A DNA stretch of 64,000 bases from a virus (IMGVR_UViG_3300037319_000172:45614-109613), one strand, 5' to 3'. Shown: positions 17,334-44,708, numbered from the stretch's first letter. Notes: generated by a model not told the origin, from the letters alone. Translations and numbers: made by a program.

Positions 17334-17591
17334 TTAATCCCCTGCCATTTCGACAAGTTCTTTCAATTTCATTAATTTATCGCACTTCTCATACTCTTCC
17401 AATCTTTCGAAATACTGAACTAAGATATCGATAAATTCGCTTCTTTGTCCAATACCGTGAGGTATCTCGATTATATCATTTCCCTCTTTGAAAACGACAA
17501 ATCTATTCACTGTCTTTGTGAAGTTACGTGTTATTGTGTAATACGAAGATCTCATTAAAGAGTCTCTGTCTTCTCCTAGGATATCTTTCAT
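17334..17591 (-). CDS. Small UVR/M-domain-like protein
   Basis: C-terminal YFERLEEYEKCDKL. Confidence 0.6.
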   Translation of the reverse strand: MKDILGEDRDSLMRSSYYTITRNFTKTVNRFVVFKEGNDIIEIPHGIGQRSEFIDILVQYFERLEEYEKCDKLMKLKELVEMAGD

Positions 17592-17699
17592 TTGATTGAT
17601 TTATTTTTATACTCTGCCATTATATTCTATATATTAAGTAGTGCCTTGTGGTACTGACATAATATGAATTAAAGTATAATGATATTATATTATCAAATG

Positions 17700-17888
17700 T
17701 TATTCCTGGTTATTAAATTTGTTTTCAACGTACTTTGCTTTTTGCATTTTAGTACGCTTCTCGACTGAAGGTTTCGTATAATCTTTTCCTTCTCTAAGGG
17801 CTTTAGTTTGCCCTGTTCTGTTTACTTTATATTTGAATGACTTTAAAGCCTTTTCAATGTTTCCTTTTTCTACTTTTATTATTAACAT
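17700..17888 (-). CDS. rpsU: Ribosomal protein bS21 (Bacteroidota-type)
   Basis: MLII....NIEKALK.FK.K...TG....LRE...Y.KPSV.KR...QKA.Y. Confidence 0.88.
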   Translation of the reverse strand: MLIIKVEKGNIEKALKSFKYKVNRTGQTKALREGKDYTKPSVEKRTKMQKAKYVENKFNNQE

Positions 17889-18136
17889 TCTAGTTTGTCA
17901 ATGATTTTTTTAATATTAGAACATTTCTCATATTCCTCGCATCCTTTAAAAAAGTTTAATATGTTAGTTAACGCTTCAACCTTCTCTAAAGGATCTGTGT
18001 TACTTTTAATAGCTCGATCTTCGTCATTAATAACTGCATTGTAAATCATGTTCATCATTGTTTCTTTGGAACCTTCCTGCAGATTTTCAATTCTGTTTGA
18101 ATCATTACCATCGTATGTGTCATCTAGCTCATGCAT
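17882..18136 (-). CDS. Small UVR/M-domain-like protein
   Basis: FFKGCEEYEKCSNIKK; overlaps dnaJ stop and rpsU start. Confidence 0.6.
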   Translation of the reverse strand: MHELDDTYDGNDSNRIENLQEGSKETMMNMIYNAVINDEDRAIKSNTDPLEKVEALTNILNFFKGCEEYEKCSNIKKIIDKLEC

Positions 18137-18923
18137 TGTCTAACTCTTTAATTTTTTTAATGTGTTCTAATTGTTTTTCGTTTAATGTAATATTTGATGT
18201 TCTTAATTTAACCATCAAATTACCGTATTGGTTGGTATTATATATCGGAAATCCCATACCAACAATTCTTAAAATTTTACCATCAAATGAGTTCTTAGGT
18301 ACCTTTATCTTTACGCTATTAACTTTAGTTGTAACTGTAAAGTCTCCTCCTAATAACATATCATAGAACGGCATATTATAATCTAACCATATATCTCCAT
18401 TAGTTACTATCATCTCAGGATCAGGCATTATATTCATTATTAGAATAGCGTCTCCGTGTGGAGCTCCTGTATTTATAGGATGTGGCATTCCCTTTCCATT
18501 CAATTTTAGTCTTGCTCCTTCATGAATTCCTTTAGGAATTCTTACATTGAAAACGTTTTGACCTGTATTTATTTTTCTAGTTGTACCACTAAATACTTCT
18601 TCTAATGTAAGTTTTATTCTAAAGGTAATATCGTTTCCTCTAGCTCTTTGATTAAAAACATCATCGAACATATTTGAAAAGCCTCCATTGTTGTTTCGAA
18701 ACATGTCATAAAAACCAGAATTGCTTTCGATACTATTTTTAATATCGTATTCTTTTTTCTTGGTTGAGTCGTTTAAAGTATCGTAAGCTTCAGATATCTT
18801 TTTAAATTTATCCTCAGATCCTCCCACATCAGGATGGTGCTTCTTGACTAAGTTTCTGTAAGACTTTTTAATCTCACTAGCAGATGCCTCCTTATTTATA
18901 CCAAGAACCTCATAGTAACTCAT
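18129..18923 (-). CDS. dnaJ: DnaJ/CbpA-type co-chaperone (no Zn finger)
   Basis: YYEVLG..HPD J-domain plus DnaJ C-terminal domains (G..LKL.GKGMP, G.L.V). Confidence 0.9.
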   Translation of the reverse strand: MSYYEVLGINKEASASEIKKSYRNLVKKHHPDVGGSEDKFKKISEAYDTLNDSTKKKEYDIKNSIESNSGFYDMFRNNNGGFSNMFDDVFNQRARGNDITFRIKLTLEEVFSGTTRKINTGQNVFNVRIPKGIHEGARLKLNGKGMPHPINTGAPHGDAILIMNIMPDPEMIVTNGDIWLDYNMPFYDMLLGGDFTVTTKVNSVKIKVPKNSFDGKILRIVGMGFPIYNTNQYGNLMVKLRTSNITLNEKQLEHIKKIKELDNA

Positions 18924-18925
18924 TA

Positions 18926-19099
18926 CTATTTGTCTTCTTTAGTTGGAGCAGGTCTCTGTTGTTTTGCAGGTTTCTTTGATTTGTTAGCTTCTTTAATTTG
19001 ATTTCTCTTAAAGTTAACGTCTCTTTTCTGAGAATTCTCCATAAGTTGAGCTATTCTCTCTAATGATACTGCGATTCTTTCTACTTGTTCTTCTGTCAT
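18926..19099 (-). CDS. Small hypothetical protein (57 aa, not in ORF track)
   Basis: MTEEQVERIAVSLERIAQLM...; GATATATA at 19107-19114; abuts dnaJ. Confidence 0.6.
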   Translation of the reverse strand: MTEEQVERIAVSLERIAQLMENSQKRDVNFKRNQIKEANKSKKPAKQQRPAPTKEDK

Positions 19100-19122
19100 G
19101 GTTTATTATATATCTTATATTG

Positions 19123-19392
19123 TTACTGGAACAATTCCATTTTCTTTTTAAGCTTTGCACACTTTTCGTATTCCTCTAATTCCTGAAAGTAAAACATAGT
19201 CTCTTCTATAATGTTTAGAATGATATCGGGATCCCGTGTTTTATCCGCGTCGATTCCATGTTTGATTATAGCGTCATAGTTAGCGCGTGCAAGGCGGTCC
19301 TTGAGGTTCTCGAGGTGATCGATGTCTTCTTGTGTAGGTTCTTCATTTTCGTAATCCTCATTAAAGTCTTGTTCAAATTCAAAATCGTCCAT
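19123..19392 (-). CDS. Small acidic UVR/M-domain-like protein
   Basis: YFQELEEYEKCAKLKK; has its own class E promoter. Confidence 0.62.
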   Translation of the reverse strand: MDDFEFEQDFNEDYENEEPTQEDIDHLENLKDRLARANYDAIIKHGIDADKTRDPDIILNIIEETMFYFQELEEYEKCAKLKKKMELFQ

Positions 19393-19402
19393 GTTGTATG
19401 TG

Positions 19403-19443
19403 TTTATTAATTATAAGTAAATATAATCATTTTAATTGATATA
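19403..19443 (-). promoter_or_regulatory. Class E promoter motif
   Basis: TATCAATTAAAATGATTATATTTACTTATAATTAATAAA. Confidence 0.75.
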
Positions 19444-19475
19444 AAAAAATCCTGGTGAAAAACTTTCATTTATTT

Positions 19476-20201
19476 TTAAATAATTTCCATGTTTGACATT
19501 TTTAACATGACATTCATGGTAGCTTTTACATCTCCTTCGCAATATTTCATAATGTTCTCTATATTACCATTCCAATAGTGTTCAGAAACTTCGTAGTTTT
19601 TCATAGCATCTTTTGGTGATGGTATATTAAATAGATTACAAATCAAATCTAATGATGAACTGTTATATCCACCGAACTTCCAAATTTCATATGTATCTAA
19701 TAGACAGTTTTCCCATGGTTTCTGTTTTTGAAAGTGAAACATAGTAGGCGGCATTATACCATTTACTAAGGATCTCTTTACAATCCAAGGCATATCGAAT
19801 TTCTTTATGTTATGTCCTATTAGTTTTACACTAGGATTTTTATTAAATACTGCACGCATAGTTCCGTTAAACTCTTCTAGTATTTTATTTTCATCTTCTC
19901 CATAAAAAGATTTAATCTTAGAACCTATTGGCATTCCTATTTCATCAAAAGAAATCTGACCTATAGAAATAGTATTAATCTTTCCGAATTCAGCGTGAAT
20001 GCTTGCATTCTTTTCATATAGTTCGGCGTCTGTTAAGCCTTCATGTCCTTCTTCATATTTTCGAATACTCTCAGCTTTCTTTAACCAAAGATCGTGTAAT
20101 CCTTCGTTTGCATTCTTTTTTAAATCCGATAAGGTTTTGTATTGTGAGCATGTTTCTATATCAATAAATAACATTCCCTTTAGTTCACTTGAATTATACA
20201 T
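19476..20201 (-). CDS. 3'-5' exonuclease (PolB-exonuclease-like)
   Basis: FIDIET, GHNIKKFD, KPWE..LDT, SL.L...F.IPSPK, YCEGDV. Confidence 0.85.
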   Translation of the reverse strand: MYNSSELKGMLFIDIETCSQYKTLSDLKKNANEGLHDLWLKKAESIRKYEEGHEGLTDAELYEKNASIHAEFGKINTISIGQISFDEIGMPIGSKIKSFYGEDENKILEEFNGTMRAVFNKNPSVKLIGHNIKKFDMPWIVKRSLVNGIMPPTMFHFQKQKPWENCLLDTYEIWKFGGYNSSSLDLICNLFNIPSPKDAMKNYEVSEHYWNGNIENIMKYCEGDVKATMNVMLKMSNMEII

Positions 20202-20203
20202 GT

Positions 20204-20557
20204 TTAGTAGTATTTAACGTCGTCGTATGTTAGACCGATATCTCGAATAGATACTGGATATTTTGTAGATGCTCCTTGTGTTAATTCATTTTCATAAGAT
20301 ATTATTGTAAAATATTTCTCATTATGTAATTTAGTTAAACTATCGCTTGTCGCGATAATGGAACCTTTAATAACACTTCCTGCGAATCTAAAGAAGTATA
20401 CTCCTCCTATTTTAGGAGACTTTACTGTGATTTTTCTTTGTATCTTTTTCTTTGCCATATACATATTATACAATGTAATTAGAAAAGGTTTATAAATCGT
20501 TCCATGAGGAATGTTCCCTAGCCTCACGGATCCTTGTATAAACTTCATAATTGACAT
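20204..20557 (-). CDS. Hypothetical protein (true start probably MAKKKI, ~20459)
   Basis: AAAC-N17-TATAAT at 20465-20491 lies just upstream of the internal Met. Confidence 0.55.
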   Translation of the reverse strand: MSIMKFIQGSVRLGNIPHGTIYKPFLITLYNMYMAKKKIQRKITVKSPKIGGVYFFRFAGSVIKGSIIATSDSLTKLHNEKYFTIISYENELTQGASTKYPVSIRDIGLTYDDVKYY

Positions 20558-20723
20558 TAATCTCTAAGAATCCTCCAGTAATACTTCCTGGTAAATCTTT
20601 AGGATTAATCCAATAATATGGAAGCCTATTAGTTCTTTCGTTGATAAAATCAAATAATGCATCTACCTCCATATGGTGGACGTATATTACAATATTCATA
20701 CAATTCATATTTGGGTATGCCAT
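20490..20723 (-). CDS. Small hypothetical protein
   Basis: 77-aa ORF adjacent to the oxygenase gene. Confidence 0.5.
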   Translation of the reverse strand: MAYPNMNCMNIVIYVHHMEVDALFDFINERTNRLPYYWINPKDLPGSITGGFLEINVNYEVYTRIREAREHSSWNDL

Positions 20724-20726
20724 AGT

Positions 20727-21320
20727 TTATTTATAATGTCCTCCACCTAACCAAAGAACGAATGATTTTCTAATACCCTTAGTTACGGGTCTAACTGAAT
20801 GAACTAGATAACTTGGAAATAATACGACAGTACCTTTTCCTCTTGGAGCAATAAGATTATTAGTATTTAGGCTTTCTCCTCCCATCCAGAAACAAAGGTC
20901 TCCTCCTTCGTATTCGCTTGAATCAGATAACTGAACTGTTATTGATATTTTTCTAACAGACATACTATCGTTTCCAACATCTTGATGCCAGTCATATTTC
21001 CCTAGTTCGTCAGCATTGTATTCAGTATATTGTATTAATTCAGGGGCTGAAGTTGCATCAAATTTCCACATTGTGTCATTCGCTTCGCTAGCGAATACTA
21101 TTAGTTTTTCGTACAACCAATTCCACTCTGTAGTTTGTGGAATCCATTTTATATTTGATTTACGATCAGGTGTTATTCCTCCATCTGTCACTGCTCTGAC
21201 GTAATCTAGATTATTAACGCCGTCTTCAATCCATCTTAATTCCTCAGATGTGAATCCTTTATCAAACCAATAATAGTCCACTGCTTTGTTTTGATTAGGT
21301 TCGAATATATTACTTCTCAT
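20727..21320 (-). CDS. 2OG-Fe(II) oxygenase (PKHD / prolyl-hydroxylase-like)
   Basis: Y.WHQD, RKIS..VQLS...YEGG.L, FPS...H.V.PVT.G.RKS.V.W. Confidence 0.9.
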   Translation of the reverse strand: MRSNIFEPNQNKAVDYYWFDKGFTSEELRWIEDGVNNLDYVRAVTDGGITPDRKSNIKWIPQTTEWNWLYEKLIVFASEANDTMWKFDATSAPELIQYTEYNADELGKYDWHQDVGNDSMSVRKISITVQLSDSSEYEGGDLCFWMGGESLNTNNLIAPRGKGTVVLFPSYLVHSVRPVTKGIRKSFVLWLGGGHYK

Positions 21321-23196
21321 TTTCGTTATATGTTATATTAACTATTCCTTCTTCTTCACCATACCTTGATTCTGTATTTATAGGATAGCTTGGATTCTCT
21401 TCATATGCCCAGTCATGTTGTCCTAACTCTTCAAATCTTAATTTTATCTTTTCGTTATAATACATTGATATAGTTCGGGTTCTTCTTTGAATATCTGCTC
21501 TAGATAAATCATGAGTGTTCCTGTGCCCTGCATTACTATATAGAAATTGAATGTAACTTAGTTTAGGTATCTTACACATTAATGTATGTAAAAAGGTTCT
21601 AACGATTAATTCATAATCATCAACAACTGTTAAACTTCTGTTATGTCCTCCTATTTCGAAATATGTAGTTCTTCTCCATGCTCTAATGTGATTAGGCACT
21701 CCAACAATATGTCTTATTGTTTTAGGATTGATATTCTGTTGATTAGCAGGTGATAACATTCTACCTTGATATTCTTCATCTCTATAGTTACCGTATCCTA
21801 ATGCAAATCCAGGTTCGTATTTATGATTCTCCCATTGTTCATTTACTTCTGCAGTATCTCCGTAAAAGAATCCGCATTCAGGATGTTTTTGTGCTGCCTT
21901 GTGTAAATCTTCAGCACATGTTTCCGCTAATAGATCGTCATGATCTAGTTCTGCAAGAATATATCCTTTAGCCATTACATTAGATCTCCATTTAACTTCT
22001 CCAATAACTCCACCTGATTTTTCTCTAAAGTCATACACTCTAACTCTTGGATCGTTTTTCGCAATCTCTTCAGCTATTTTTAGTGTTTTACCTCCATCAG
22101 TAGAATCATTCATTAATATCCATTCCCAGTTTCCATAAGATTGTCTAGCAACTGATTCGTATGTGTTCCATAACTTATCTCCTGTATTATAAATAGGAGT
22201 AGTAAATGATATTAAGCTCTGATCATTTAAATTAGTAGGATCTAACATCGCGTTTTCTGAAACACTATATGCGATATCACCAACTAGGTTCATGTCTCCG
22301 TCATCATCTATGTTTATCCACTTTCTTCTAAATTGAAGAGGTAAACTGCAAAGTGTAGGAAATGAATCAGAACTTTCTCCTCTAGTAACTATAGAGTCTG
22401 GTTTAAATTCAGAAATAACTTTACTTATATTATCATCATTTTTAACATACATTACTGTTAAATTATTATCTTCATAATCCAATACCTTTGATGTCTTTAA
22501 CTGAGGTCTTCCTTCACCGACATACAACACTCTTGGTAGTTTAGGAGTTGACTCCTTTTGTAATTTATTATAGTGTGAAAGTATTTCATCTATCCAAACG
22601 AAGCGACTCGGGTGATCCTTGTAAACTTCATCAATAAAGAATCCGTCTGCTGCATAATCTGCAGTGAATCCATATTCATCAAAAAGATCTCCTCTTAATA
22701 ATACTTGAGCGATATCTGTTTTCTGATAACCTGTATTTTGTGGAGTTGCTTCCCTATATTTTAATCCTGTAAAATCTTTACCATTGACATCTTGTCCGAC
22801 AACAATCATTACTTTATCTGAATTACTAGGAATCGTTAAATGTTCTTCTATTCTTTGATAAAAATCGGAATGCATTATATTATCATCATCTAGTAAATAA
22901 AACCAACCAGATCCTCGAGTAACCATATCGGATTCGTGTGAAACTATATGTCTTATTAAGTCAGTAGTTTCAGGATACATCATCCCTCCTTTTTTACCTT
23001 TGATAAAATGTATTGTTGTATTTTCTTGATCTAATTCTGCAAGTACCTCTGCGTCAATATCCTTAAGCGATCCTGTATCAAACATGATGTGCCAATGGAT
23101 ATCTACATTTGCTGTTTTAGAATTATCAAAAACTGTAGGTTTGATTTTTAAAAGATTAGACGTACGGGTACACCTTGTTATTACATTAATTTTCAT
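21310..23196 (-). CDS. Tandem GT-A (GT2) glycosyltransferase
   Basis: Two GT-A domains (YLLDDDN; TPIYN..SV.RQ...WEW...ND.STD, ELDHDD, DDYEL). Confidence 0.85.
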   Translation of the reverse strand: MKINVITRCTRTSNLLKIKPTVFDNSKTANVDIHWHIMFDTGSLKDIDAEVLAELDQENTTIHFIKGKKGGMMYPETTDLIRHIVSHESDMVTRGSGWFYLLDDDNIMHSDFYQRIEEHLTIPSNSDKVMIVVGQDVNGKDFTGLKYREATPQNTGYQKTDIAQVLLRGDLFDEYGFTADYAADGFFIDEVYKDHPSRFVWIDEILSHYNKLQKESTPKLPRVLYVGEGRPQLKTSKVLDYEDNNLTVMYVKNDDNISKVISEFKPDSIVTRGESSDSFPTLCSLPLQFRRKWINIDDDGDMNLVGDIAYSVSENAMLDPTNLNDQSLISFTTPIYNTGDKLWNTYESVARQSYGNWEWILMNDSTDGGKTLKIAEEIAKNDPRVRVYDFREKSGGVIGEVKWRSNVMAKGYILAELDHDDLLAETCAEDLHKAAQKHPECGFFYGDTAEVNEQWENHKYEPGFALGYGNYRDEEYQGRMLSPANQQNINPKTIRHIVGVPNHIRAWRRTTYFEIGGHNRSLTVVDDYELIVRTFLHTLMCKIPKLSYIQFLYSNAGHRNTHDLSRADIQRRTRTISMYYNEKIKLRFEELGQHDWAYEENPSYPINTESRYGEEEGIVNITYNENEK

Positions 23197-23206
23197 TTAG
23201 TATGGT

Positions 23207-24145
23207 TTATTGTTGTATGTCAAAAAAGAACATGTGAAAAAATCGTGAGTTATCTATTGCGTCTCCGAAGTATTCGGTTGCTGCGTGTATCTGTGATGAG
23301 TTGAAAATTACGAGTCTATTATATACGTTACCAATATCATCTATCTTTTCAAATAGAGTTCCATCGTAAAAGTTCATAGCTTCGTTTGTTCCTTTAAATG
23401 TGTGAAAGTATTCATCTCCCATTCTAGATTCCTGTCCTGGAAAAGAATTTATACCTGTTACTTTACTTCGGTACATTGATGTTCCAGTAGGTGCAGGTGC
23501 GTTTGGTGTTAAGTATACCATTGCGGCATACATTTGAGAATCTACATGATAAACAATAGGCTGATCAGCAGTACAATATTGAAATACACCATTAGCGTAT
23601 CCTACATTGTTCCAGTTTGTTATCTTTCTACCTAATATTTCTTCTAACTTTTCTTTAGTTCCATCTAGTATAAATCTAGAATTTGATCTCTGTCCTTTAT
23701 GATAATCCGATGGAGTGTATTCAAGGTTTTGCATCGCATATTCTCTAACAAGATCTGGATCTGCATAGAAATTATCTACAACAATGACATCTTTATCTGT
23801 TGGGTTAAACCCTGATGAAACAGCTGCCCATTTTCCTATAGAAACAAACTCTTCAGGTTCTTCACCATTAAAACTTATTCTTAATTTAGAATTTATTAAA
23901 TGTTTGGGAATAGATATGTTGAATCCAGTGCAAAAGTCTAAAGATCCTTCATAGTATCTAGATACATCTATCCTAGGTTCCCATTCTATTTTTAATTTAA
24001 TATCTTCTATTAATAAATCTATAAAGTTAATTTTTCTATCGCTGTTTGTAGAACCTATCCAACCTCTTACATTCCATGTTGAATCTAATCCTTCAGATAC
24101 TTCATCAACATTAAGTAATATATTTTTAATATTAGTAGTATGCAT
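23207..24145 (-). CDS. 2OG-Fe(II) oxygenase-like protein (DUF6445-like) with N-terminal accessory domain
   Basis: VVDNFY.DPD.VREYA, HVD, VYLTP, GT, YNRLVIF....HAA..YFG...R....FF. Confidence 0.75.
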   Translation of the reverse strand: MHTTNIKNILLNVDEVSEGLDSTWNVRGWIGSTNSDRKINFIDLLIEDIKLKIEWEPRIDVSRYYEGSLDFCTGFNISIPKHLINSKLRISFNGEEPEEFVSIGKWAAVSSGFNPTDKDVIVVDNFYADPDLVREYAMQNLEYTPSDYHKGQRSNSRFILDGTKEKLEEILGRKITNWNNVGYANGVFQYCTADQPIVYHVDSQMYAAMVYLTPNAPAPTGTSMYRSKVTGINSFPGQESRMGDEYFHTFKGTNEAMNFYDGTLFEKIDDIGNVYNRLVIFNSSQIHAATEYFGDAIDNSRFFHMFFFDIQQ

Positions 24146-24197
24146 TCTTATTTCTTTAATTATTATACGATTAATTTGCTATTTGTTTATATATTAC

Positions 24198-24229
24198 AAA
24201 AAAAAGGATCCCATTTCTGAGATCCTTTT
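24198..24229 (-). terminator. Intrinsic terminator after collagen genes
   Basis: aaaaggatc..gatcc-ttttttt stem-loop. Confidence 0.7.
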
Positions 24230-24255
24230 AACTATTTATATTTACTATTTATTAT

Positions 24256-27219
24256 TTAGAAACGTCCTCTACCTCCACCTCCACCTGGTCCTGAGCTTAT
24301 TTCTTCTTTTCTGTTGTGTGTTACTATTCCGTTTGCTATATAAACGTCATCGTTTTCAACATCCAATCTCCATACTCTCTGATGTACTCCTTCAAATAAA
24401 GGACTCATTGTAATCGTATCGACTACGATTTTACTAAATGAATCTTTAAGTAATAAGAAATCTCCCTGTAGTAGTTCAGATGTTTTTAAAGTTCGCCATT
24501 CACCATTTCTCTCTGCAATATGTAAATGGTCTGCTGAAGCTTCTATTATTCCATTAATATTGTATGAATACATTACTAGTATTTCAACGTTAGAAGTTAC
24601 TGTTGATTCTGAAAATGTAGCGTTTAATTCGCTTGATCTCCATTCTTTTAAAACAGCATATTCATCTGAATCAGGCATGGTGTCTATATGTACTGATTTT
24701 ACGATATTTCCTACTTCTACATTTTCTATACTTTTAAAAGAACCATCATTCATTTCAATTTGTGTTCCTTCTATTAAACAGCCGGGTCCGCCTCCTGTAT
24801 TTATTATAGAAGTTACTAATCCATTAGATAATCCGATAAAAATATTACTAGTACTAAAACTCCTATCTGAATCTGAACCTCCAGACAAAGTACGTCCTCT
24901 ATATCCTTGAGGTCCTCTTGAATTATAATTCCCATTATTTCCTCTGTAACCTTGAGCTCCTCTTGGTCCACCATTTCCTTGAGCTCCTCTTGGACCTTTA
25001 TATCCACCGGGTCCATTATTACCTTTTGTACCTTGAGCTCCTTGAGCTCCTCTAGCAGCAACTCCGTAATTTGTACCTTGTGATCCTTTTGGTCCTTTAG
25101 GTCCTTGATTTCCTGTTAATCCCTTTACGGTAGATGTTGTTCCTTGAGATCCTTGAGGACCTTGAGGACCCGTTGAACCTGTATTTCCTTGAAATCCTCT
25201 TGGCATAGCACCTTGAGCTCCTTGAGCTCCTTGATATCCTTTATATCCTTTATATCCTCTATCATAAAAACCACTAAAACCTTGAGGTCCAGTAAGTCCT
25301 TTATTACCTTGAGCTCCTCTTTGCTTAGCTCCAATAGCTCCTGTAGGTCCTGCTTCTCCTTTCACTCCTGTAGGTCCTCGGTTAGTAGCTCCTTCGAATC
25401 CATCAGCTCCTCCATCTCCTACAGTTCCTTTATCTCCTCTTGGATTATTACCTTGAGATCCTTTATATCCTCCATCTCCTTTAAGACCTTGAGATCCTCT
25501 TGGAAAAGCACCTTGATATCCAGTAGGACCTGCGTCTCCTAGAGCTCCTTGAGGCCCTACTGGTGAATCTCCAGTATTACCTTGAGATCCTTGAGTTCCT
25601 TGAGTTCCTCTAAGTCCTTGTGGATCATCTCCTATATGTCCTTGAGCTCCTTTAGTTCCTTGATTTCCTTTAGTTCCTTGCGGTTCGTATCCTGGATTTC
25701 CCTTAGATGCTTGAGTTCCTTGAACTCCTCTATCTCCTCTTGGATTGTATCCTTGATATCCACCAGGACCTCCGTTTCCTTGAGCTCCTTGATCTCCTCT
25801 AGGTGTTGCTCCTTGTGCTCCTTTATATCCTTGATCTCCTTGAAAACCTTCATATCCTTTAGGACTTGCTCCTTTTGATCCTTTTAATCCTTGATCTCCT
25901 TTAGGACCTGCTGGTGATACGGGTGTACTACCTTGATTTCCTTGAGCTCCTTTATTTCCTTGATGACCTCTATGTCCTGTTGGATTTGCTCCTTTAAATC
26001 CTCTATCTCCCTGGTTTCCTTGAAAACCTTCATATCCTGTAGGACTTGCTCCACCAGTTCCTTGATTTCCTTGAGTTCCTTTATCTCCTTCATATCCTGT
26101 AGGTTCTGCTCCTGGTAAACCATTTTGTCCTGTAGCTCCTTTATCTCCTTTGAATCCTGTTAAACGATCTCCTTGTGATCCTTTATTTCCTTTATCTCCT
26201 TTGAATCCTTTATAACCTTTAATACTATCTCCTTGATTTCCTTGATTTCCTATAAAACCAGTATCACCTGATATTGCTGGATTTGTTGATCCTTGAGAAC
26301 CTTTAGGTCCATCAGGTCCATCCTCTCCTTTAATTCCTTTAGGGCTTGCTCCAGTAGTTCCTTTAAATCCTAATTCACCACTTTCACCTTTAAGTCCTAT
26401 TGGTGAAGCTCCTTTATTTCCAGTATCTCCTTGTGCACCGTCTGGTCCAGAATCTGGAGACAATGTAATACCTTGATCTCCTCTAAAACCCTGAGCTCCT
26501 TGATTTCCTTGATTTCCTTTTATATTATCACCAATAGCACCTTGATTTCCTTGAGCTCCTCTATCTCCTTCAGGTCCTGTTGGACTATCTCCATCAGCTC
26601 CTTTATCTCCATTAGGGCCATCATCTCCTTTAGCTGCAGTATCTGTAGCTCCTTGAGGTCCTCTTGGTCCCTCAGTTCCTTTATCTCCTTTATAACTAGT
26701 AATTAGATTACCGTCTAATCCCTTATGGCCTTGATCTCCAATAGATCCTATAGCTGCTTCTTCTGTTTTACCTTTAGAACCTTGAGCTCCCTTAGATCCC
26801 TTAGATCCTTGTTCACCCTGTGGACTAAATCCATCATCTCCTTGGAATCCAGTAGGACCTTGAGGCTCATCACCATCAATTCCTAAAAGACCTTGACTAC
26901 CTTGAAAACCAACTTCCCCTTCAAAGCCTTCATCTCCTATTGGATTATCTCCCTGTATTCCACGCTCTCCTTCAATACCTGTAGGTTCTTCACCTTCTAA
27001 TCCTTGATCTCCTTTTAACCCTTGATTTCCTTGATTTCCTTGATCTCCTTTTAACCCTTGATTTCCTTGATCTCCTTGGAATCCTTGATCTCCAGTTAAT
27101 CCTTGATCTCCTTGAAATCCTTGATCTCCTATAAATTCTGAGTAAGCATTTTTATCGAAATTACCGACATGTAGAGGAGTTTCTCCCCCTACTGTCGATC
27201 CTGTTCTTAACTTTGCCAT
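24256..27219 (-). CDS. Collagen-like fibre protein with C-terminal Hint (BIL-type) domain
   Basis: Gly-X-Y from aa 31 to ~775 with periodic interruptions; CLIEGT...SADH...Y.ANGIVTHN. Confidence 0.88.
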   Translation of the reverse strand: MAKLRTGSTVGGETPLHVGNFDKNAYSEFIGDQGFQGDQGLTGDQGFQGDQGNQGLKGDQGNQGNQGLKGDQGLEGEEPTGIEGERGIQGDNPIGDEGFEGEVGFQGSQGLLGIDGDEPQGPTGFQGDDGFSPQGEQGSKGSKGAQGSKGKTEEAAIGSIGDQGHKGLDGNLITSYKGDKGTEGPRGPQGATDTAAKGDDGPNGDKGADGDSPTGPEGDRGAQGNQGAIGDNIKGNQGNQGAQGFRGDQGITLSPDSGPDGAQGDTGNKGASPIGLKGESGELGFKGTTGASPKGIKGEDGPDGPKGSQGSTNPAISGDTGFIGNQGNQGDSIKGYKGFKGDKGNKGSQGDRLTGFKGDKGATGQNGLPGAEPTGYEGDKGTQGNQGTGGASPTGYEGFQGNQGDRGFKGANPTGHRGHQGNKGAQGNQGSTPVSPAGPKGDQGLKGSKGASPKGYEGFQGDQGYKGAQGATPRGDQGAQGNGGPGGYQGYNPRGDRGVQGTQASKGNPGYEPQGTKGNQGTKGAQGHIGDDPQGLRGTQGTQGSQGNTGDSPVGPQGALGDAGPTGYQGAFPRGSQGLKGDGGYKGSQGNNPRGDKGTVGDGGADGFEGATNRGPTGVKGEAGPTGAIGAKQRGAQGNKGLTGPQGFSGFYDRGYKGYKGYQGAQGAQGAMPRGFQGNTGSTGPQGPQGSQGTTSTVKGLTGNQGPKGPKGSQGTNYGVAARGAQGAQGTKGNNGPGGYKGPRGAQGNGGPRGAQGYRGNNGNYNSRGPQGYRGRTLSGGSDSDRSFSTSNIFIGLSNGLVTSIINTGGGPGCLIEGTQIEMNDGSFKSIENVEVGNIVKSVHIDTMPDSDEYAVLKEWRSSELNATFSESTVTSNVEILVMYSYNINGIIEASADHLHIAERNGEWRTLKTSELLQGDFLLLKDSFSKIVVDTITMSPLFEGVHQRVWRLDVENDDVYIANGIVTHNRKEEISSGPGGGGGRGRF

Positions 27220-27262
27220 TTGTATTATTTGTTTATTTTTATATTATTATATTTAAAGTAGC

Positions 27263-29785: not shown

Positions 29786-29837
29786 AATTGTTTATTTTAT
29801 TTTTATATGTTATGTTATATATTTTAAATATATGTGT

Positions 29838-32591: not shown

Positions 32592-32625
32592 ATCTTTATT
32601 TAGTTATTTTTATTATTTATCAGTT

Positions 32626-33168: not shown

Positions 33169-33196
33169 AGTTTGATTTATCTTATTTATTTTTTAT

Positions 33197-33961: not shown

Positions 33962-34085
33962 ATATTTTTCTTTTTTTTATAATTTATTTGACGAAAAAGC
34001 GTGTCTACTCTTTCAATACTGATTTTATATATCTGGTTTAGTAGTGTTCATTAGTTTAATAGGGCCATAATATTGTAATATAATA

Positions 34086-34676: not shown

Positions 34677-35452
34677 ACATCCCATACTCCATTCATATGA
34701 CATCTAACATATGTCGGTTGAGAATATAGTGCGCCGTTCTTATATCTACCTTGTACTTCCTTTATAAAGAAAATATCTTCAGAAATACTACTAGAAATAA
34801 CGTCCTGCCATTTGTTTGATATATTACTGACATGCATGAATAACCACGGAGCCATTATCTGTCTACCTTTTGCAAATTGCATTGGTTTCCAAGTTTCTGG
34901 TAATCCTGCAAGTTCTACACTTTCAATAGTATTAGGATCTATTATACCAGTTAAATTCTTTTCTGTTCCAGTAACTCGGCTGTTATCATACCAAGATCCA
35001 TTAATCCACCATGTCTTTTCAGGTTCTGCGTTATATTCTAATAATGCTGACATAGTATGATTAGGCATTATGTAATCGTCTGAATCCATATAAGTTATAA
35101 GAGATCCGGTTGATGCTGCTATTCCAAGTTGCCTAGCTGCTCCTCTATAGTAGGTTCCTTCTTCCATTTCTTCATACATTTTTGGAGTATTAGATCTGTC
35201 ATAATATACAAATTTAATATTAGCATTTTCTTTATGAGATCTATTATATAGCTGGTGCGTCTTGTTACATCCGTCTGCTACTATAATCAATTCACAATTT
35301 TTATAAATTTGGTTGTTAAAACTTTCAACTGCCCTATGAAATTTATTAATAGAATCTTCTCTTGCTCCTGGATATTTTTCCAGATTAACTTGCATTATTA
35401 TTGATATTTTAACTTTATCTAAAGCTTCGTATATTTCTTTAAAATCGTTCAT
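34673..35452 (-). CDS. GT2-family glycosyltransferase
   Basis: RAVESF..Q....ELIIVADG, ARQLG, YMDSDD, ED. Confidence 0.8.
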   Translation of the reverse strand: MNDFKEIYEALDKVKISIIMQVNLEKYPGAREDSINKFHRAVESFNNQIYKNCELIIVADGCNKTHQLYNRSHKENANIKFVYYDRSNTPKMYEEMEEGTYYRGAARQLGIAASTGSLITYMDSDDYIMPNHTMSALLEYNAEPEKTWWINGSWYDNSRVTGTEKNLTGIIDPNTIESVELAGLPETWKPMQFAKGRQIMAPWLFMHVSNISNKWQDVISSSISEDIFFIKEVQGRYKNGALYSQPTYVRCHMNGVWDV

Positions 35453-36648
35453 TATTTATATAAGTTTGTTTTCCAATTATATTCGTATGACAACTCATGT
35501 TTATTTGGATTAAATAAGTTGTCTATAAGTTTTTTATATGTATCAACCAATTCAGGGTTAGTTGACGTATATCTATTTAGTATTGGTTTGTTTTTTTCAA
35601 TGTATTCTTCAATGTTTTTATCATGATCCTGCAATGCAATTTTAAGTTGCTCAGCGCCTTTTGTTATATTAAATCCTTCATAATAATATCCTCCATCCTT
35701 AATCATGTCTGCATTATGAACAAGTGGGTACCCGTAGTACATTGCGTCTAAATATGCATAGTTTAATGGGTTTTCCCATTGGTGTGAAATGACAATATCG
35801 GTTTCACTTGAAAGGAACGTTGAAATAGGATATCTACCTACAAATTTTATTTTATTATCGCTTGAATTAACTATATCGAAATGCTTAATCATATCAAGAT
35901 AGTATTTATTTGTAATAAGCTTTTTACCTGAACCTATAAATATTTGCTTGAATGAAGCTTCACCTAAATCTCTAAATATCTTTTCAGCAATCATGATTGG
36001 TATTAATGAATATTTTACAACATTCAAATTAGGTTCCATTACTGATAGCTTCTTTTTATGCTGAGCCTTTGGTGTATACTTAGGAGTTTTCTTTCCGGCT
36101 TTTGTTAGTAATTTATCAAAATCATCTAAAGGTTCTGGATCCCAAACAAAAGGAACGATATGTACTTGTGAATCGTTCTGTCTATATATAGTCTTATAAT
36201 ATTCTAAGTTCTGATATTCTTGTTGAGGTATAATCCAAGTTGCGTCATGTCCGCTATCCCATGAAGGCTTCTCTCCTTCACTTGCTTTATCAAATAATAC
36301 TCTTTCCATATCTACAACATAACTATTGCCGCATTGATATTTTACTATTTTTATATTTGGATTAGATTCTTTAATCTTTTTTATTCTACTAGTAGGCAAT
36401 GAAGATCCTATCATGAATAACAAATCTAATTTGTTTTCCATGTCTATAAATTTAGCTATTTTATATTTACTATAATCCCAATTTACTTTGGTTAAATCAT
36501 CAACTGCAGTCCCAGTGTCTAATATGTAAACATCTAGCCCTTCGATCTGGCCTAGCATTTTTGATAAATTCAAAGCATTTAGTTTAATACCATTGATCCA
36601 CATGCTTTCGTATTCGGTATTTAGCGATATTGATATTCCTACTTTCAT
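35452..36648 (-). CDS. DUF2827-like putative glycosyltransferase
   Basis: W.NGI..N, CGN.Y, VPFVWDP, MEPN.NVVK...P, SHQWENPLNY.Y.D....YPLVHN. Confidence 0.7.
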   Translation of the reverse strand: MKVGISISLNTEYESMWINGIKLNALNLSKMLGQIEGLDVYILDTGTAVDDLTKVNWDYSKYKIAKFIDMENKLDLLFMIGSSLPTSRIKKIKESNPNIKIVKYQCGNSYVVDMERVLFDKASEGEKPSWDSGHDATWIIPQQEYQNLEYYKTIYRQNDSQVHIVPFVWDPEPLDDFDKLLTKAGKKTPKYTPKAQHKKKLSVMEPNLNVVKYSLIPIMIAEKIFRDLGEASFKQIFIGSGKKLITNKYYLDMIKHFDIVNSSDNKIKFVGRYPISTFLSSETDIVISHQWENPLNYAYLDAMYYGYPLVHNADMIKDGGYYYEGFNITKGAEQLKIALQDHDKNIEEYIEKNKPILNRYTSTNPELVDTYKKLIDNLFNPNKHELSYEYNWKTNLYK

Positions 36649-36679
36649 AAACAGTTATTGTATTTATTTATATATTTAA

Positions 36680-36705
36680 AAAAGAAAGGGTCCCGAAGGA
36701 CCCTT
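36680..36705 (-). terminator. Intrinsic terminator with UUCG tetraloop
   Basis: aagggtcc-ttcg-ggaccctt-tctttt. Confidence 0.85.
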
Positions 36706-36742
36706 AAATTAAAACTATGAATTAAATACTTTCGTATTTTTC

Positions 36743-38104
36743 TTAGAATTGGTAAACGAATACTACTGTATCCTCTGAATCGATTGTGTACCCTGGAGTA
36801 GACAATGTAACTGCTGCTCCTGCGATAGATTCTGCAAATACTCTTGATCCGTTAACGAATACATCTACTAGAGATAATTGAGCCTCTTGGACTGTATTTG
36901 CTAATGTATATACTAAACCATTTCCTGCGAAAGATTCAGTTGCCATTTGATCATCTTCGATTATAGCTGCTTCTACAGTATCTAATCTTCCAGCTAAAGC
37001 TGCATCAGCGTTAGCTAAATTGATTACATCCTCGTTAGTTGCAGAAATCTCAGAAGATAGTTCTGTTTGTAAATCAAGTACATCTGCATTTGTTGCAGAA
37101 ATCTCAGAAGATATTTCTCCATCAATTCTTGTAACATCAGAGTTAGTATCTGCAATCTCATTGTTTAAATTCAAGATTACTGCTGCTAAAGCGTCGTCAT
37201 TTACAGTATCAACCGCGTTGATGATAGAAACTACATCTGCGAAAGAGTCTGGATCTGCGTCTACTGCGTTTAATATAGATGCGAACTTGTTTGAAGTTGC
37301 AAGTACCTCAGTAGATAAAGCTCCATCAATTCTTGTAACATCTGCATTAGTATCAGCAATTTCACTTGCTAATTCTCCATTAAGTCTTGTAACCTCAGAG
37401 TTAGTTGCAGCTATTTCACCTGCTACTTCCCCATCAATTCTTATAACTTCAGAGTTAGTTGCAGAAATCTCTGCAGATAAAGCTACTTCTAAAGCGTCAA
37501 CTGAATCAACTAAATCTCCAGAAACTTCTCCTAATCTAGCATCGATAGAAGTTACATCTCCATTAGTCGCATTGATTTCAGTAGCTAATTCTCCGTTAAG
37601 TCTTGTAACTTCTGAATTAGTTGCTGTGATTTCAGCAGCTATTGCAGCGTCGATTCTTGTAACATCTGAATTAGTTGCAGCTATCTCGTTGTTTAAATTC
37701 GAGATTACTACTGCTAAAGCGTCGTCATTTACAGTATCAACCGCGTTGATGATAGAAACTACATCTGCGAAAGAGTCTGGATCTGCACCAACTGCATCTA
37801 AAATAGCAGAAAACTGAGTTGAAGTAGAAAGTATCTCTGTAGATAATGCTTCATCAATTCTTGTAACGTCTGCGTTAGTATCAGCAATTTCACTTGCTAA
37901 TTCTCCTTCAACTCTTACAAAATCAGAACTAGTTGCAGAAATCTCTGCTTCTAAATCGTTATTAACTCTTATAGCTTCAGTAGATATTTCATCTTTAACG
38001 TACCTTGCGATGTCTGCCGTATTGGCAATCTCAAAGTTAGAAGTTGCCCCCCAGTTTACTGTGCTTAAAAAATCCTTAATTTGTTTTGAACGAATTTGTG
38101 CCAT
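36743..38104 (-). CDS. Acidic coiled-coil fibre protein with ~18-aa repeats
   Basis: Repeats of EIxATNxDVTRID; large internal duplication; C-terminal beta domain (VFVNG). Confidence 0.7.
   Translation of the reverse strand: MAQIRSKQIKDFLSTVNWGATSNFEIANTADIARYVKDEISTEAIRVNNDLEAEISATSSDFVRVEGELASEIADTNADVTRIDEALSTEILSTSTQFSAILDAVGADPDSFADVVSIINAVDTVNDDALAVVISNLNNEIAATNSDVTRIDAAIAAEITATNSEVTRLNGELATEINATNGDVTSIDARLGEVSGDLVDSVDALEVALSAEISATNSEVIRIDGEVAGEIAATNSEVTRLNGELASEIADTNADVTRIDGALSTEVLATSNKFASILNAVDADPDSFADVVSIINAVDTVNDDALAAVILNLNNEIADTNSDVTRIDGEISSEISATNADVLDLQTELSSEISATNEDVINLANADAALAGRLDTVEAAIIEDDQMATESFAGNGLVYTLANTVQEAQLSLVDVFVNGSRVFAESIAGAAVTLSTPGYTIDSEDTVVFVYQF
37183..37787. repeat. 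Internal direct repeat, 528-nt period
   Basis: ~75-nt identical blocks starting at 37183 and 37711 (encoding DPDSFADVVSIINAVDTVNDDALA). Confidence 0.8.
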
Positions 38105-38267
38105 ATTGTTTATTGTGTTATATTTTGGCCTAACAACCTTATTGTCGTTAGTGATTTATATATCTCACATAAGCGGGTGGACGTGTATATAATACACGTA
38201 ATATGTTAATAGAATTCAAAAAAATGAAAAAATGAGAAAACCCAATTAATATAGACCGATTAAGCTC

Positions 38268-39467
38268 CTATAATAGATCTGCTCGTGCAGTCTCGTATGT
38301 CAAGTTGACTTCGTCACCTGCCTCTAAATCATACCCTGCTATGTTTCCGTTCCAGTATAATATGTGGCCTGCTCTGATTTCAGATATATCAACAGGAGTT
38401 AACCCTCCATCATTTGAGAAGTAAGAGTCTTTGTCTTTATTACCATTTCCTACTTCTACCGTTATTCCGTTTACTTCAACATGCACATAAGATTCTGCAT
38501 ACGGATTATATGTTAATTGTACTGTTGTATTTGCTGAGTTACCTATTGTTGCAGCTGGGTTTATATTCTTATCAACAAATGCTAATATTCCTTCAATATT
38601 GTTATTTACATCTAATTGAAAAGTAATATCCTGTCCAATTTCCCATATTGTTTTAGTAACACCAGGGCCTGTTGACTGCGTCTCGAATGTAATATCTAAT
38701 TTTATACCATCGGCATCTTCACTATCTCCTCCTCCTGTTATAAGATCAAGTCTTTCCCATGCTGTTATTTTATAAATAGCATATAGATTTGTTGGTTCCA
38801 TATCAAATATTGTTAATATTCCTGTAGCTCCATAAGATACTCTATTTATTAAAAAGTTTTCTAATGATGATAATCTAATACCATTTGAATCTAAATTTTT
38901 AAATATAATTGAAGTTACTTCGCTTGGGGTTTTTGAATCAACTGAAACACTTCCTTGGAAATTAGGATCTGAACCATCTATATTTTCTATCTGAAATACT
39001 CCTTCAACTGAAGACTTTTGTATAATTGTTGTCGTGTTATTATTATTTTCAGGATTATTAGGGTTTGCGTTTGAAACAAGAGATCCTAATTTTAAATTAG
39101 GAAATACATAACTTTTAGATTGAGGATAGTAGTTTTCGTAGAATATACTAACCTGTACTGTTATCAGTCCTACTCCTAAGTTTAAAGATTGACTTTCATC
39201 TATTAAAAAACTTATTTTTCCGGAATTCCCTGCTCTATCTACTGTAAGTTGAGAAGAAACTCCTGGAATTGGAGGTTCCGCGTATTGTAATACTTTTCTA
39301 TCTTCTATAAAAACAGCTACTCCAAATGAAGTTGGTTGGTTTAAATTTAATATAGTTCCTATATAGTCTTTATATAGTATAATGTCATATGTTTGTGAAT
39401 TACCAGAAATAACGTTGATTTCTTCTTCAATAAATGCTATTATATCGTCGTTTGCTACGTAAGCCAT
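38268..39467 (-). CDS. Virion structural protein
   Basis: C-terminal P.A.S.V.V..NG...YFS.DGG.T......AG....WN...AGY....GD domain shared with 33197-33961. Confidence 0.6.
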   Translation of the reverse strand: MAYVANDDIIAFIEEEINVISGNSQTYDIILYKDYIGTILNLNQPTSFGVAVFIEDRKVLQYAEPPIPGVSSQLTVDRAGNSGKISFLIDESQSLNLGVGLITVQVSIFYENYYPQSKSYVFPNLKLGSLVSNANPNNPENNNNTTTIIQKSSVEGVFQIENIDGSDPNFQGSVSVDSKTPSEVTSIIFKNLDSNGIRLSSLENFLINRVSYGATGILTIFDMEPTNLYAIYKITAWERLDLITGGGDSEDADGIKLDITFETQSTGPGVTKTIWEIGQDITFQLDVNNNIEGILAFVDKNINPAATIGNSANTTVQLTYNPYAESYVHVEVNGITVEVGNGNKDKDSYFSNDGGLTPVDISEIRAGHILYWNGNIAGYDLEAGDEVNLTYETARADLL

Positions 39468-39509
39468 TATTTATTAAGTATTTTTTATATATATTCTAAT
39501 AAATTAACT

Positions 39510-40193
39510 CTATTTTGTTAATTTATGATATAAAGAGTATCTTGATATTGGGAGTATACATTCTTCGTGATCTTCGTTTAATTTGTGATCTATTCTCCAG
39601 AATCTTTTATCGTCTATTTCTTTTTTTGAATTTACTATGTATTCTATTATATCTGGAACCCCTTTCAAATCGATATCTACCTTCTTAAGTATTAAATCAT
39701 CCCATTCTCCTACTAATTTATAAGGGTTATTATATGAATAAGTTAATATGTTAGTATTTTTATCTATTATAAAAACAATGCCTTTTATTTTTGTTGGCAT
39801 AGTTCTAGGAATTTCTGTTACTGTCAGTTTTGAAGCGATAGATCTCCACTTTACCCTAATCATTCTAAATAAAGATTCGAATTCTTCAATTGCAATTTCT
39901 ACTAATTGGTATATGTGAAATATGTCATCTTCGGTTTCAGGATATTCGTAGTCGAGAGACATCGTGTCTAGATTTATCCCAGTAAGTACTCTGAGCCTGT
40001 CATCTATCTCGTTCTTTTTATTTTTAAGTTTATATAAGTCTTCTAATTGGTATTCTACTTCAGTTAATGCCTCATGTAAAAATCCGGCTTTAATCATAGA
40101 CATTAACTTTTGAGTTGCCCCTAATAGTTTATATCTTTTTAATTCAAAGTCGAAAGGTAAATCGGTTAGCCAGTTTTTATGTAATATCTTCAT
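39510..40193 (-). CDS. Hypothetical protein
   Basis: 227 aa, W....DFELK.Y.LL N-terminus. Confidence 0.65.
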   Translation of the reverse strand: MKILHKNWLTDLPFDFELKRYKLLGATQKLMSMIKAGFLHEALTEVEYQLEDLYKLKNKKNEIDDRLRVLTGINLDTMSLDYEYPETEDDIFHIYQLVEIAIEEFESLFRMIRVKWRSIASKLTVTEIPRTMPTKIKGIVFIIDKNTNILTYSYNNPYKLVGEWDDLILKKVDIDLKGVPDIIEYIVNSKKEIDDKRFWRIDHKLNEDHEECILPISRYSLYHKLTK

Positions 40194-40251
40194 CAGATAT
40201 ATTTATCCGAATATCGTAGGCGTATAGTGTGATTATGAAGGTAATATTGTA

Positions 40252-40566
40252 TTATAAATGTTCTTTGTCTTTTTCTTCTTTTATTACTTTAAAGGTATCT
40301 GCCGCTTCAGTACCTTCTAGAGCAAGACCCCATTGTAATATAAACCAATGTGCTTCTTTTAAAGCCATTTCTTTGTTTAACTTTAAAACTTCTCGAATTC
40401 TGCTAACACTATGGTTTATGAAAGCTTCTTCTCTTTCTTTAGTAGTTCGGTATTCCATATACCATTGTGGATTTCCTTTAACATCTTCGTAAGTTACACC
40501 ATGATGTTTAAGTTGTTCATTTATTAATTCAATAAACAGTTCTCTTGTTTTCTCTCGCTTTGTCAT
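40252..40566 (-). CDS. Hypothetical protein
   Basis: 104-aa ORF. Confidence 0.65.
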   Translation of the reverse strand: MTKREKTRELFIELINEQLKHHGVTYEDVKGNPQWYMEYRTTKEREEAFINHSVSRIREVLKLNKEMALKEAHWFILQWGLALEGTEAADTFKVIKEEKDKEHL

Positions 40567-40591
40567 ATTACTTTATTATTAGATTATTATA

Positions 40592-40786
40592 TTATAATGA
40601 TATAAGACTGGCGAAAGTGTCCATGTCGCTCAAACGAATAAAATCGTCTGAAGTTAAGGAAACCATCACCATGTCAGTCATAGGATTAAAAGAAATCTCA
40701 ATCATATCTTCTAGATTATTATAATCTTTTAATATGTTAGTTAGATACTCTATTTTATTCTGTCTTATGTAAAAATATACTTTCAT
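40592..40786 (-). CDS. Small hypothetical protein
   Basis: 64-aa ORF. Confidence 0.55.
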   Translation of the reverse strand: MKVYFYIRQNKIEYLTNILKDYNNLEDMIEISFNPMTDMVMVSLTSDDFIRLSDMDTFASLISL

Positions 40787-40803
40787 AATCCTATATTATT
40801 ATA

Positions 40804-41475
40804 TTATCTTTTTTTAATTATCTCATCAATAATTCCATACTTCTTAGCTTCTTCTGCATTTAACCAAAAATCTCTGGTTGCATCTTTCATAACTACTTCC
40901 GCTTTTTTACCGCAATATTCTCCTAACAATACAAATAATTCCTTATTTACATCTTGCCAGTTTTTCCAATCTATTTCAGCATCTTGTATATTACCACTAA
41001 ATCCTCCAGAAGACTGGTGTAACATAGTAGTAGAGTGACGTAGAGACATTCTCTTACCCTTGGTTCCTGCTCCTAATAATACTGAACCCATTGACGCGGC
41101 CATACCAGTGTTGATCGTACGTATATCACATTTAATGTAATCCATAACATCTACCATAGAAAGACCAGATTTAACTGAACCTCCTGGTGAATCAACATGC
41201 ATTGTAATATCCTCTGCTGATGTAGTATCTAGAAACATTAATTGTGCCTGAACTATTGTAGACATATTGTCGTTAACTGGACCTGCTACCCAAAGTAATC
41301 TATCCATCATCAATCTTGAAAATATATCCATTTGAGTTGCTCTAAGTTCTCTCTCTTCTAAAATGTAAGGAGTCATTGAGTTCTCTACTTGTTTCTCGTA
41401 ATAATTCATGTTAGAAGAACTAACATTATGATCGCTCATTGCGAACTTCCTAAAATCTTTACTATTGTAATCCAT
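40804..41475 (-). CDS. clpP: ClpP protease subunit
   Basis: TPYILEER...MDIFSRLMMDR, SPGG, GMAASMG, HQ, RD.W..AEEA..YGIID. Confidence 0.95.
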   Translation of the reverse strand: MDYNSKDFRKFAMSDHNVSSSNMNYYEKQVENSMTPYILEERELRATQMDIFSRLMMDRLLWVAGPVNDNMSTIVQAQLMFLDTTSAEDITMHVDSPGGSVKSGLSMVDVMDYIKCDIRTINTGMAASMGSVLLGAGTKGKRMSLRHSTTMLHQSSGGFSGNIQDAEIDWKNWQDVNKELFVLLGEYCGKKAEVVMKDATRDFWLNAEEAKKYGIIDEIIKKR

Positions 41476-41773
41476 GTTCTATTATTAGTTTTGATATTTT
41501 TTCACAAGTCTCGTATTCCTCGTTTTCTTTATAATACTCTAGAGCTTTCGTTAACGACTTAACATAACCTTCTCCTTCTAATTTTGCTTCCATAACATCT
41601 CCTCCAGGATCTACTAAGTAGCATAATACATCTAAGCTAAAATTGCTAGTTAAATTAAATTCTATAAATTCCAATACTCTCTTATAAAATCCTTCTTTAT
41701 CTTTTATTGGTCCTTCTAGAGATGTTTCTATTCCATCGGCATTAATATCAAAATACGGCGTATCTCCTATCAT
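41462..41773 (-). CDS. Small UVR/M-domain-like protein overlapping clpP start
   Basis: ALEYYKENEEYETCEKI; 14-nt overlap with clpP. Confidence 0.62.
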   Translation of the reverse strand: MIGDTPYFDINADGIETSLEGPIKDKEGFYKRVLEFIEFNLTSNFSLDVLCYLVDPGGDVMEAKLEGEGYVKSLTKALEYYKENEEYETCEKISKLIIEHGLQ

Positions 41774-44647: not shown

Positions 44648-44708
44648 ATTTCTAATTAATATTTATAAGTATTATAATGGTTTAAATGGTTTTGTTTCGG
44701 CATTTTAT

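Follow-up and report, generated by a model that had tools for sequence, protein, structure and literature searches.

The AAA+ protease ClpC is normally held off by its N-domain together with contacts between the tips of its M-domains, and the known adaptors act through both. The M-domain is one of several carriers of the UVR motif, a helix-turn-helix hairpin of about 35 residues that is also found at the C terminus of UvrB and in UvrC, McsA, and the plant proteins CLPF, EXE, and UVR1-4. F436 sits at the tip of the M-domain and is required both for M-domain contacts and for MecA binding, and mutating position 436 or 443 breaks the head-to-head contacts between M-domains and activates ClpC (PMC5699869). 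When ClpC lacks its N-domain (delta-N ClpC), pairs of hexamers are joined head-to-head by their M-domains and form rods with ClpP, and the enzyme shows proteolytic activity only with F436 mutated (PMC12583610). In plastids, 5 stand-alone UVR-domain proteins are among the 59 enriched interactors of a CLPC1 trap (PMC8889267). Here we describe four small proteins, P1 to P4, from an uncultured marine jumbo phage that end in a hairpin resembling the UVR motif, one of which (P4) is encoded between genes for ClpP and for a ClpC that lacks the N-domain. The stretch that encodes them (IMGVR_UViG_3300037319_000172:45614-109613), called the window below, is the last 64 kb of a 109,613-bp IMG/VR virus record (33% G+C; CheckV completeness estimate, 35%).

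An earlier note, made from the sequence alone, had reported four open reading frames (ORFs) in the window that share a C-terminal motif. All four are present on the minus strand with the C termini quoted there, at 17334 to 17591 (P1, 85 amino acids [aa]), 17882 to 18136 (P2, 84 aa), 19123 to 19392 (P3, 89 aa), and 41462 to 41773 (P4, 103 aa). When all 109,613 bp of the record are translated in six frames, EEYE.C is found at exactly four places, one in each of P1 to P4, and in every case 11 to 15 residues ahead of the stop. A chance origin of the motif was ruled out, with 4 copies found versus 0.01 expected from residue frequencies; over 100 shuffles, the mean was 0.02, and no shuffle had more than 1. 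Coordinates, strand, C termini, and motif statistics all bear the report out. The motif reads EEYEKC at 17382 to 17399 in P1, 17921 to 17938 in P2, and 19159 to 19176 in P3, and EEYETC at 41504 to 41521 in P4. Ahead of the UVR-like hairpin, P1 has a helix and a beta-hairpin insert, P2 has an acidic N-terminal tail and a three-helix core that ends in the hairpin, P3 has a strongly acidic and aromatic tail on a core like that of P2, and P4 has a beta-alpha-beta-beta-alpha-alpha fold with the hairpin at its end. Once the hairpin was removed, the ortholog groups of P1 to P4 had no significant mutual similarity in profile-profile comparisons with hhalign (P = 0.011 to 0.73), and calling the N-terminal halves unrelated was fair. 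Besides the hairpin Cys, C90, proteins of the P4 subfamily share another invariant Cys, C51, in the "LC" of a beta-strand.

The hairpin is widespread. A profile of P1 to P4 found 574 proteins at E <= 0.01 among proteins of 46 to 181 aa, and a 62-position core profile collected 845 clusters at 50% identity, almost all of 50 to 130 aa (nearly the whole set falls within 49 to 152 aa, with one 3014-aa row), across which F-x3-EEYEKC-x2-L is near invariant. More than 600 IMG/VR stretches carry the hairpin pattern. No Pfam, NCBIfam, or PHROG model matched P1 to P4 or their cellular relatives, a PDB sequence profile search returned nothing below E = 0.89, and a full-text literature search for EEYEKC found no papers. 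Searching 50,697 GenBank phage records by tblastn with P1, P2, and P4 gave no match, and one relative gave one weak match. Genes neighboring the family in other phages carry sorting domains of the type IX secretion system, which suggests Bacteroidota hosts. We are confident that P1 to P4 are genuine genes and belong to a very large family of small proteins (about 50 to 150 aa) that has no name and is defined by a Cys-type UVR-like hairpin. The family is very probably one of phages with likely Bacteroidota hosts and of some Bacteroidota genome bins, with N-terminal parts that vary. Its hallmark is, with high probability, the C-terminal helix-turn-helix [YF]F-x3-EEYEKC-x2-L-x2-I, a Cys-bearing variant of the UVR motif ([FY]E-x-AA-x2-RD).

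In prokaryote genomes, a degenerate DNA pattern hit at least 120 stretches, about 50 of which are small ORFs with a C-terminal hairpin, mostly in Bacteroidota bins. Some of the genome-bin hits are probably mis-binned phage contigs. One contig labelled as a Rickettsiales metagenome-assembled genome (CBDHFF010000001.1; 120,283 bp) encodes a close counterpart of the hairpin protein of G020, a complete phage of 119,868 bp. It has the same length as that phage and is probably a phage genome that was placed in the bin. Other hits sit on large contigs, and in the two examples examined only the hairpin part matches. The first, a hairpin protein of 69 aa, is encoded after a 144-aa ORF and next to NADAR and PcfJ-like genes, which is a mobile-element context; the second, a Bacteroidales protein of 153 aa, has hydrogenase, HAD, and UbiA genes around it. 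The arrangement of a 144-aa ORF, 4 nucleotides (nt), and then the 69-aa hairpin protein is found in four Flavobacteriales bins (L144:2287-2934, L197, L135, and L200), and the gene pair of L144 lies near NADAR and PcfJ-like genes of the kind typical of conjugative elements.

The AlphaFold model of the P2 core is a confident small helical domain with a predicted local distance difference test score (pLDDT) of 93.7 and hairpin helices at residues 27 to 43 and 47 to 61. The P4 model (pLDDT 87) has the beta-alpha-beta-beta-alpha-alpha order with hairpin helices at residues 67 to 83 and 87 to 99, and both models contain a UVR-type helix-turn-helix hairpin of about 35 residues. Despite the dissimilar N-terminal parts, one further helix packs on the hairpin in every AlphaFold model. 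The conserved Tyr, Cys, Leu, and Ile are spaced i, i+3, i+6, and i+10, which places them on one helix face, and this face probably packs against the preceding helix. The hairpin tip would hold the acidic EE-x-EK residues and the Tyr, and we infer that the hairpin is a protein-protein docking module. The Cys takes the position of the first packing Ala of the UVR motif and is therefore probably buried, so redox control through it, which had been suggested, is unlikely. Foldseek against the PDB gave no match at E <= 0.001 for the P2-core or the P4 model. ClpC, UvrB, MecA, and ClpS were not among the fold matches listed, which does not exclude families that were not listed, and a ClpS-like or MecA-like fold for P4 was set aside with none among the matches listed. 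The known ClpC adaptor families (MecA, McsB/McsA, ClpS, YpbH, and MdfA) gave no Pfam, NCBIfam, or PHROG match in P1 to P4 and were absent from the listed fold matches, a listing that by itself excludes nothing.

We compared the family core with a UVR profile built from 17 motifs, 16 from five Bacteroidota genomes and one from the phage ClpC. The hhalign alignment scored 19.9 (P = 4.6e-4) and placed EEYEKC over (D/E)YE-x-AA; none of 150 column shuffles reached this score, and their maximum was 12.9. With the built UVR model, about 9 of the 148 representatives were matched at E < 0.01, in each case on the hairpin, and the best-scoring ones read ...EEYEKC-x2-(I/L)RD. One family member, that of phage G020, scores above the Pfam UVR (PF02151) gathering cut-off, with 22.6 bits against 21.5. 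Among Atlas clusters that have a Pfam family, the nearest is viral, with UVR in 39% of its members, a lead only at a score of 0.84. As in described UVR motifs, the turn of the hairpin is acidic-aromatic-acidic, (D/E)(Y/F)E, with a small residue after it, and P1 to P4 keep the Tyr and Glu of the signature [FY]-E-x-A-A-x-x-R-D. The hairpin differs in that an invariant Cys replaces the first Ala, and in that it is invariably packed on one or more extra helices, giving a small globular domain. From these alignments, we conclude that the hairpin appears to be a Cys-type UVR branch or a motif closely similar to one. The proposed match to the ClpC M-domain stands as a weak in-register resemblance seen with hhalign, but the Pfam UVR model misses all four proteins, and a scan with it left P1 to P4 unmatched while placing one relative, that of G020, over the cut-off. 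In a separate case, the 635-kb huge phage LR745206.1, which has an N-domain-less ClpC, three small open frames of 100 to 206 aa score over the Pfam UVR cut-off (296136-296207, 316883-316975, and 525964-526059); they are of the canonical and not the Cys type, and none adjoins clpC.

The phage ClpC (42671 to 44647, minus strand; 658 aa) has the Pfam domains AAA, AAA_lid_9, UVR, AAA_2, and ClpB_D2-small, that is, D1, M-domain, and D2. It aligns to an 818-aa S. aureus-type ClpC from a GenBank record from the linker between the N-terminal domain and D1 onward, and 11 phage ClpC homologs are of similar N-domain-less length (655 to 691 aa). The absence of Clp_N and the start of the alignment at the linker confirm the earlier description of this ClpC as N-domain-less, and by this alignment the protein is a natural delta-N ClpC that starts at the same linker as the engineered construct. 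Its M-domain UVR motif (43769 to 43852, minus strand; residues 266 to 293) scores 28.4 bits against PF02151 in the six-frame search and 23.3 bits on the protein, and it is the sole Pfam UVR match in the record. Within it, Y285 and R292 align with the UVR aromatic residue 436 and Arg 443 of the S. aureus-type ClpC, and both are invariant across 11 phage ClpCs. In the alignment, the invariant Tyr of the P1-to-P4 hairpin appears to occupy the position of this M-domain tip residue (phage ClpC Y285, S. aureus F436). Since delta-N ClpC is held inactive by M-domain tip contacts (PMC12583610), a mimic of the tip would have a job. As in the ClpC-ClpP systems of S. aureus and B. subtilis, the phage keeps D1, the M-domain with Y285 and R292, and D2, and it encodes a ClpP two genes downstream of clpC. 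Unlike the engineered delta-N protein, it has lost the N-domain naturally. Unlike the ClpC-MecA pair of S. aureus and B. subtilis, it has no detected MecA, McsB, or ClpS homolog, and the proposed partner is a hairpin protein of about 100 aa without similarity to MecA. In one sister-phage record (G005; L274:765-4380), ClpC is split into pieces of 431 and 370 aa with a 96-aa ORF and about 0.9 kb between them, which could be a mobile element insertion, an intron, or a disruption.

The clp block runs clpC, a thymidylate-synthase-like gene (41778 to 42632, minus strand; Pfam Thymidylat_synt, 1.2e-18), P4, and clpP (40804 to 41475, minus strand; 223 aa; Pfam CLP_protease, 6.1e-57). P4 starts 4 nt past the thymidylate-synthase-like gene and overlaps clpP by 14 nt (41462-41475). 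This order is kept in 8 of 11 sister records, one of which has a 279-aa gene inserted before clpP, and a ninth keeps clpC, the thymidylate-synthase-like gene, and P4 with no clpP nearby, so that P4 stays beside clpC in 9 of the 11. Across the sister records, identities are 29 to 65% for P4, 66 to 92% for ClpC, and 81 to 94% for ClpP. A different record (G022; L269:3443-3814), whose ClpC is 51% identical, has a 123-aa ORF without the hairpin between clpC and clpP, which may be a methylglyoxal-synthase-like domain. Complex prediction with full-length ClpC and P4 gave an ipSAE of 0.33 versus 0.11 for the best control, a weak point in favor of the contact with phage ClpC that had been proposed. 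The runs shared at least 94% of contacts, and the partner pLDDT was at least 76. Of 80 solved complexes, 58 reached the mark used, and of 110 mismatched pairs, 2 did; with an ipSAE of <=0.60, just 7 of the 80 solved complexes and both passing mismatches reached it, counts that are only rough here with our own alignments supplied.

These data suggest a mechanism for P4. It would be cotranscribed with the N-domain-less clpC and with clpP, and the tip of its hairpin would dock onto the M-domain tip of ClpC, at Y285 and R292, with the outcome that the phage protease is switched on or steered. P1 to P3, and the single copies in phages without clp genes, would present the same tip to phage or host ClpC or to another UVR-bearing protein. 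We hold this whole explanation, ClpC mechanism included, tentatively and at below even probability; docking of P4 on the M-domain tip with the phage protease switched on or steered is, as a separate step, somewhat doubtful. A bolder version seems distinctly unlikely: phages of Bacteroidota would encode stand-alone mimics of the M-domain tip, P4 would cap Y285, dissolve the inactive head-to-head ring dimers, and license ClpCP, its paralogs, with their other N-terminal parts, would deliver different clients, and the copy in a phage without clp genes would act on host ClpC. If true, this would be a new modular control of a AAA+ protease through its repressor coiled coil, and a viral ClpC without the N-domain, together with small proteins that copy the tip, would be a natural experiment on the ClpC switch. 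It would also give a first handle on a nameless family of at least 845 clusters without known function. Should the ClpC link fail, there would still be a defined new domain family, a Cys-type UVR hairpin in phages and Bacteroidota bins.

A number of observations weigh against this ClpC-directed mechanism. Concerning the motif, Pfam UVR gave no match to P1 to P4 at E <= 1 on the proteins or at E <= 10 when the whole record was translated in six frames, and among 141 relatives just 2 matched at E < 1. The hhalign probability was just 33%, and a reversed UVR profile scored 15.1. The Arg-Asp of the UVR signature is present in a subset of relatives and absent from P1 to P4. Concerning the genomes, the near-complete phages G016, G020, and G033 have one family copy each and no ClpC or ClpP, and no family member is present in two huge phages with an N-domain-less ClpC (701 and 657 aa), one of which carries three other small ORFs that match Pfam UVR. 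Within the clp block there is also the unrelated thymidylate-synthase-like gene, and the synteny among the sister records is partly inherited. Weak passes in complex prediction, such as that of P4, are wrong more often than they are right. P1 to P3 have no link to Clp other than the shared motif; only P4 is tied to clp genes. The idea of four modular adaptors is partly supported: it is attractive as a mechanism for P4, which has gene order, the N-domain-less ClpC, and the tip alignment on its side, and unsupported for P1 to P3 apart from the motif. Co-occurrence with clpC in other genomes, which the earlier note had looked to, fails outside this lineage: ClpC is found in 12 and ClpP in 12 of 45 IMG/VR records with the family, most of which are fragments, and both are found in one (348 kb) of the four records that are at least 90% complete.

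The remaining counterpoints also speak for the main rival account, which we hold, like the first, at below even probability. The hairpin would be a general self-association or scaffold module, like the UVR dimers at the UvrB C terminus, or a fold-stabilizing signature like the TPR consensus, in small host-takeover or accessory proteins whose partners are unrelated to Clp, and the place of P4 would reflect inherited gene order. The family is spread very widely, for the most part in the absence of clp genes, and its members in other phages and in genome bins stand in contexts unrelated to Clp (the NADAR/PcfJ region and the hydrogenase/UbiA genes among the bins). The spacing of the conserved Tyr, Cys, Leu, and Ile is the one seen in buried helix faces. 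A search for longer relatives gave 507 matches, nearly all of 138 to 222 aa without a Pfam domain (two have DUF3846), and no fusion that hints at a function, whether with Clp, a J-domain, or another domain, was present among them. VIA-align fold searches gave generic TPR-like and three-helix bundles among the matches listed, with best Z scores of 8.8 and 5.7. The best structural matches were TPR-like (separase, Hif1, ComR, Rap, and Sti1), and the aromatic, small, and hydrophobic residue pattern of the hairpin resembles one TPR unit. However, the phage proteins have a single hairpin in place of a repeat array, the weak matches listed included no Pfam TPR family, and the Z scores are in the range of any helical bundle. 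A self-association or scaffold role also leaves three things unexplained: the near-invariant, exposed EE-x-EK tip across 845 clusters, the retention of P4 in the clp block despite drift to 29% identity, and the in-register match to the M-domain tip.

The copies in phages without clp genes could have targets in the host. All five Bacteroidota genomes checked encode UvrB, a ClpC-like protein (about 850 aa) whose M-domain has a UVR motif, and a protein of about 200 aa ending in EDYE-x-AS-x-IRDEI, and two of the five have a UVR match of UvrC length. Because these genomes carry a ClpC with a UVR M-domain, the failed co-occurrence leaves host ClpC as a possible target, and the presence of UVR-bearing proteins in all five means that host targets exist for such copies. 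The same survey also fits the suggestion that the proteins are decoys or recruiters of other host UVR proteins (UvrB, UvrC, or the nuclease-UVR protein of about 200 aa in Bacteroidota) and block or redirect excision repair or the nuclease during infection. Pairing of UVR with UVR is a known, textbook mode of contact between UvrB and UvrC, and a decoy would account for the single copies in phages without clp genes. However, no neighborhood link to repair genes was seen, and the place of P4 in the clp block would be unexplained, and we consider such decoys very unlikely.

Leaving P4 and returning to P1 to P3, their genes form a block in the order RNase HII, PhoH, P1, bS21, P2, DnaJ, a 57-aa ORF, P3, and a PolB-type exonuclease. 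The placements given in the earlier note, with one gene overlapping clpP and three around dnaJ and rpsU, match the ORF coordinates. The bS21 homolog (rpsU) lies at 17700 to 17888 (minus strand; PHROG 21469, 4e-06) and the DnaJ-like co-chaperone, with a J-domain and DnaJ_C, at 18129 to 18923 (minus strand). P2 shares 8 nt with the end of dnaJ and 7 nt with the start of rpsU. P1, P2, and P3 keep their order around dnaJ and rpsU in 44 IMG/VR loci, where PhoH, P1, bS21, P2, DnaJ, the 57-aa ORF, and P3 are conserved and the P1 orthologs are 68 to 96% identical. This conserved order and the double overlap of P2 fit a role for P1 to P3 as accessory factors of the DnaJ, bS21, and PhoH genes, for example as BAG-like three-helix co-chaperones of host DnaK, and BAG domains were among the structural matches. 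Their Z scores of 6.1 to 6.3 are within the noise for helical bundles, however, and family members in other phages are not beside DnaJ or bS21, which makes this role very unlikely. The 57-aa ORF itself, between P3 and dnaJ at 18926-19099, is rich in Lys and Gln and matches no family.

The four genes had also been assigned to different promoter classes, which we could not reproduce. A sigma-70 scan was at background, with 18 sites versus 21.9 expected, and P2 and P4 have no intergenic spacer of their own for a promoter. The timed proteolysis program that had been built on these promoter calls is accordingly not supported, since it depends on them. A T4-late-like TATAAATA lies at window positions 44660-44667, 20 nt upstream of the clpC start codon, and TATAAATA occurs 16 times on the minus strand of the window and 8 times on the plus strand.

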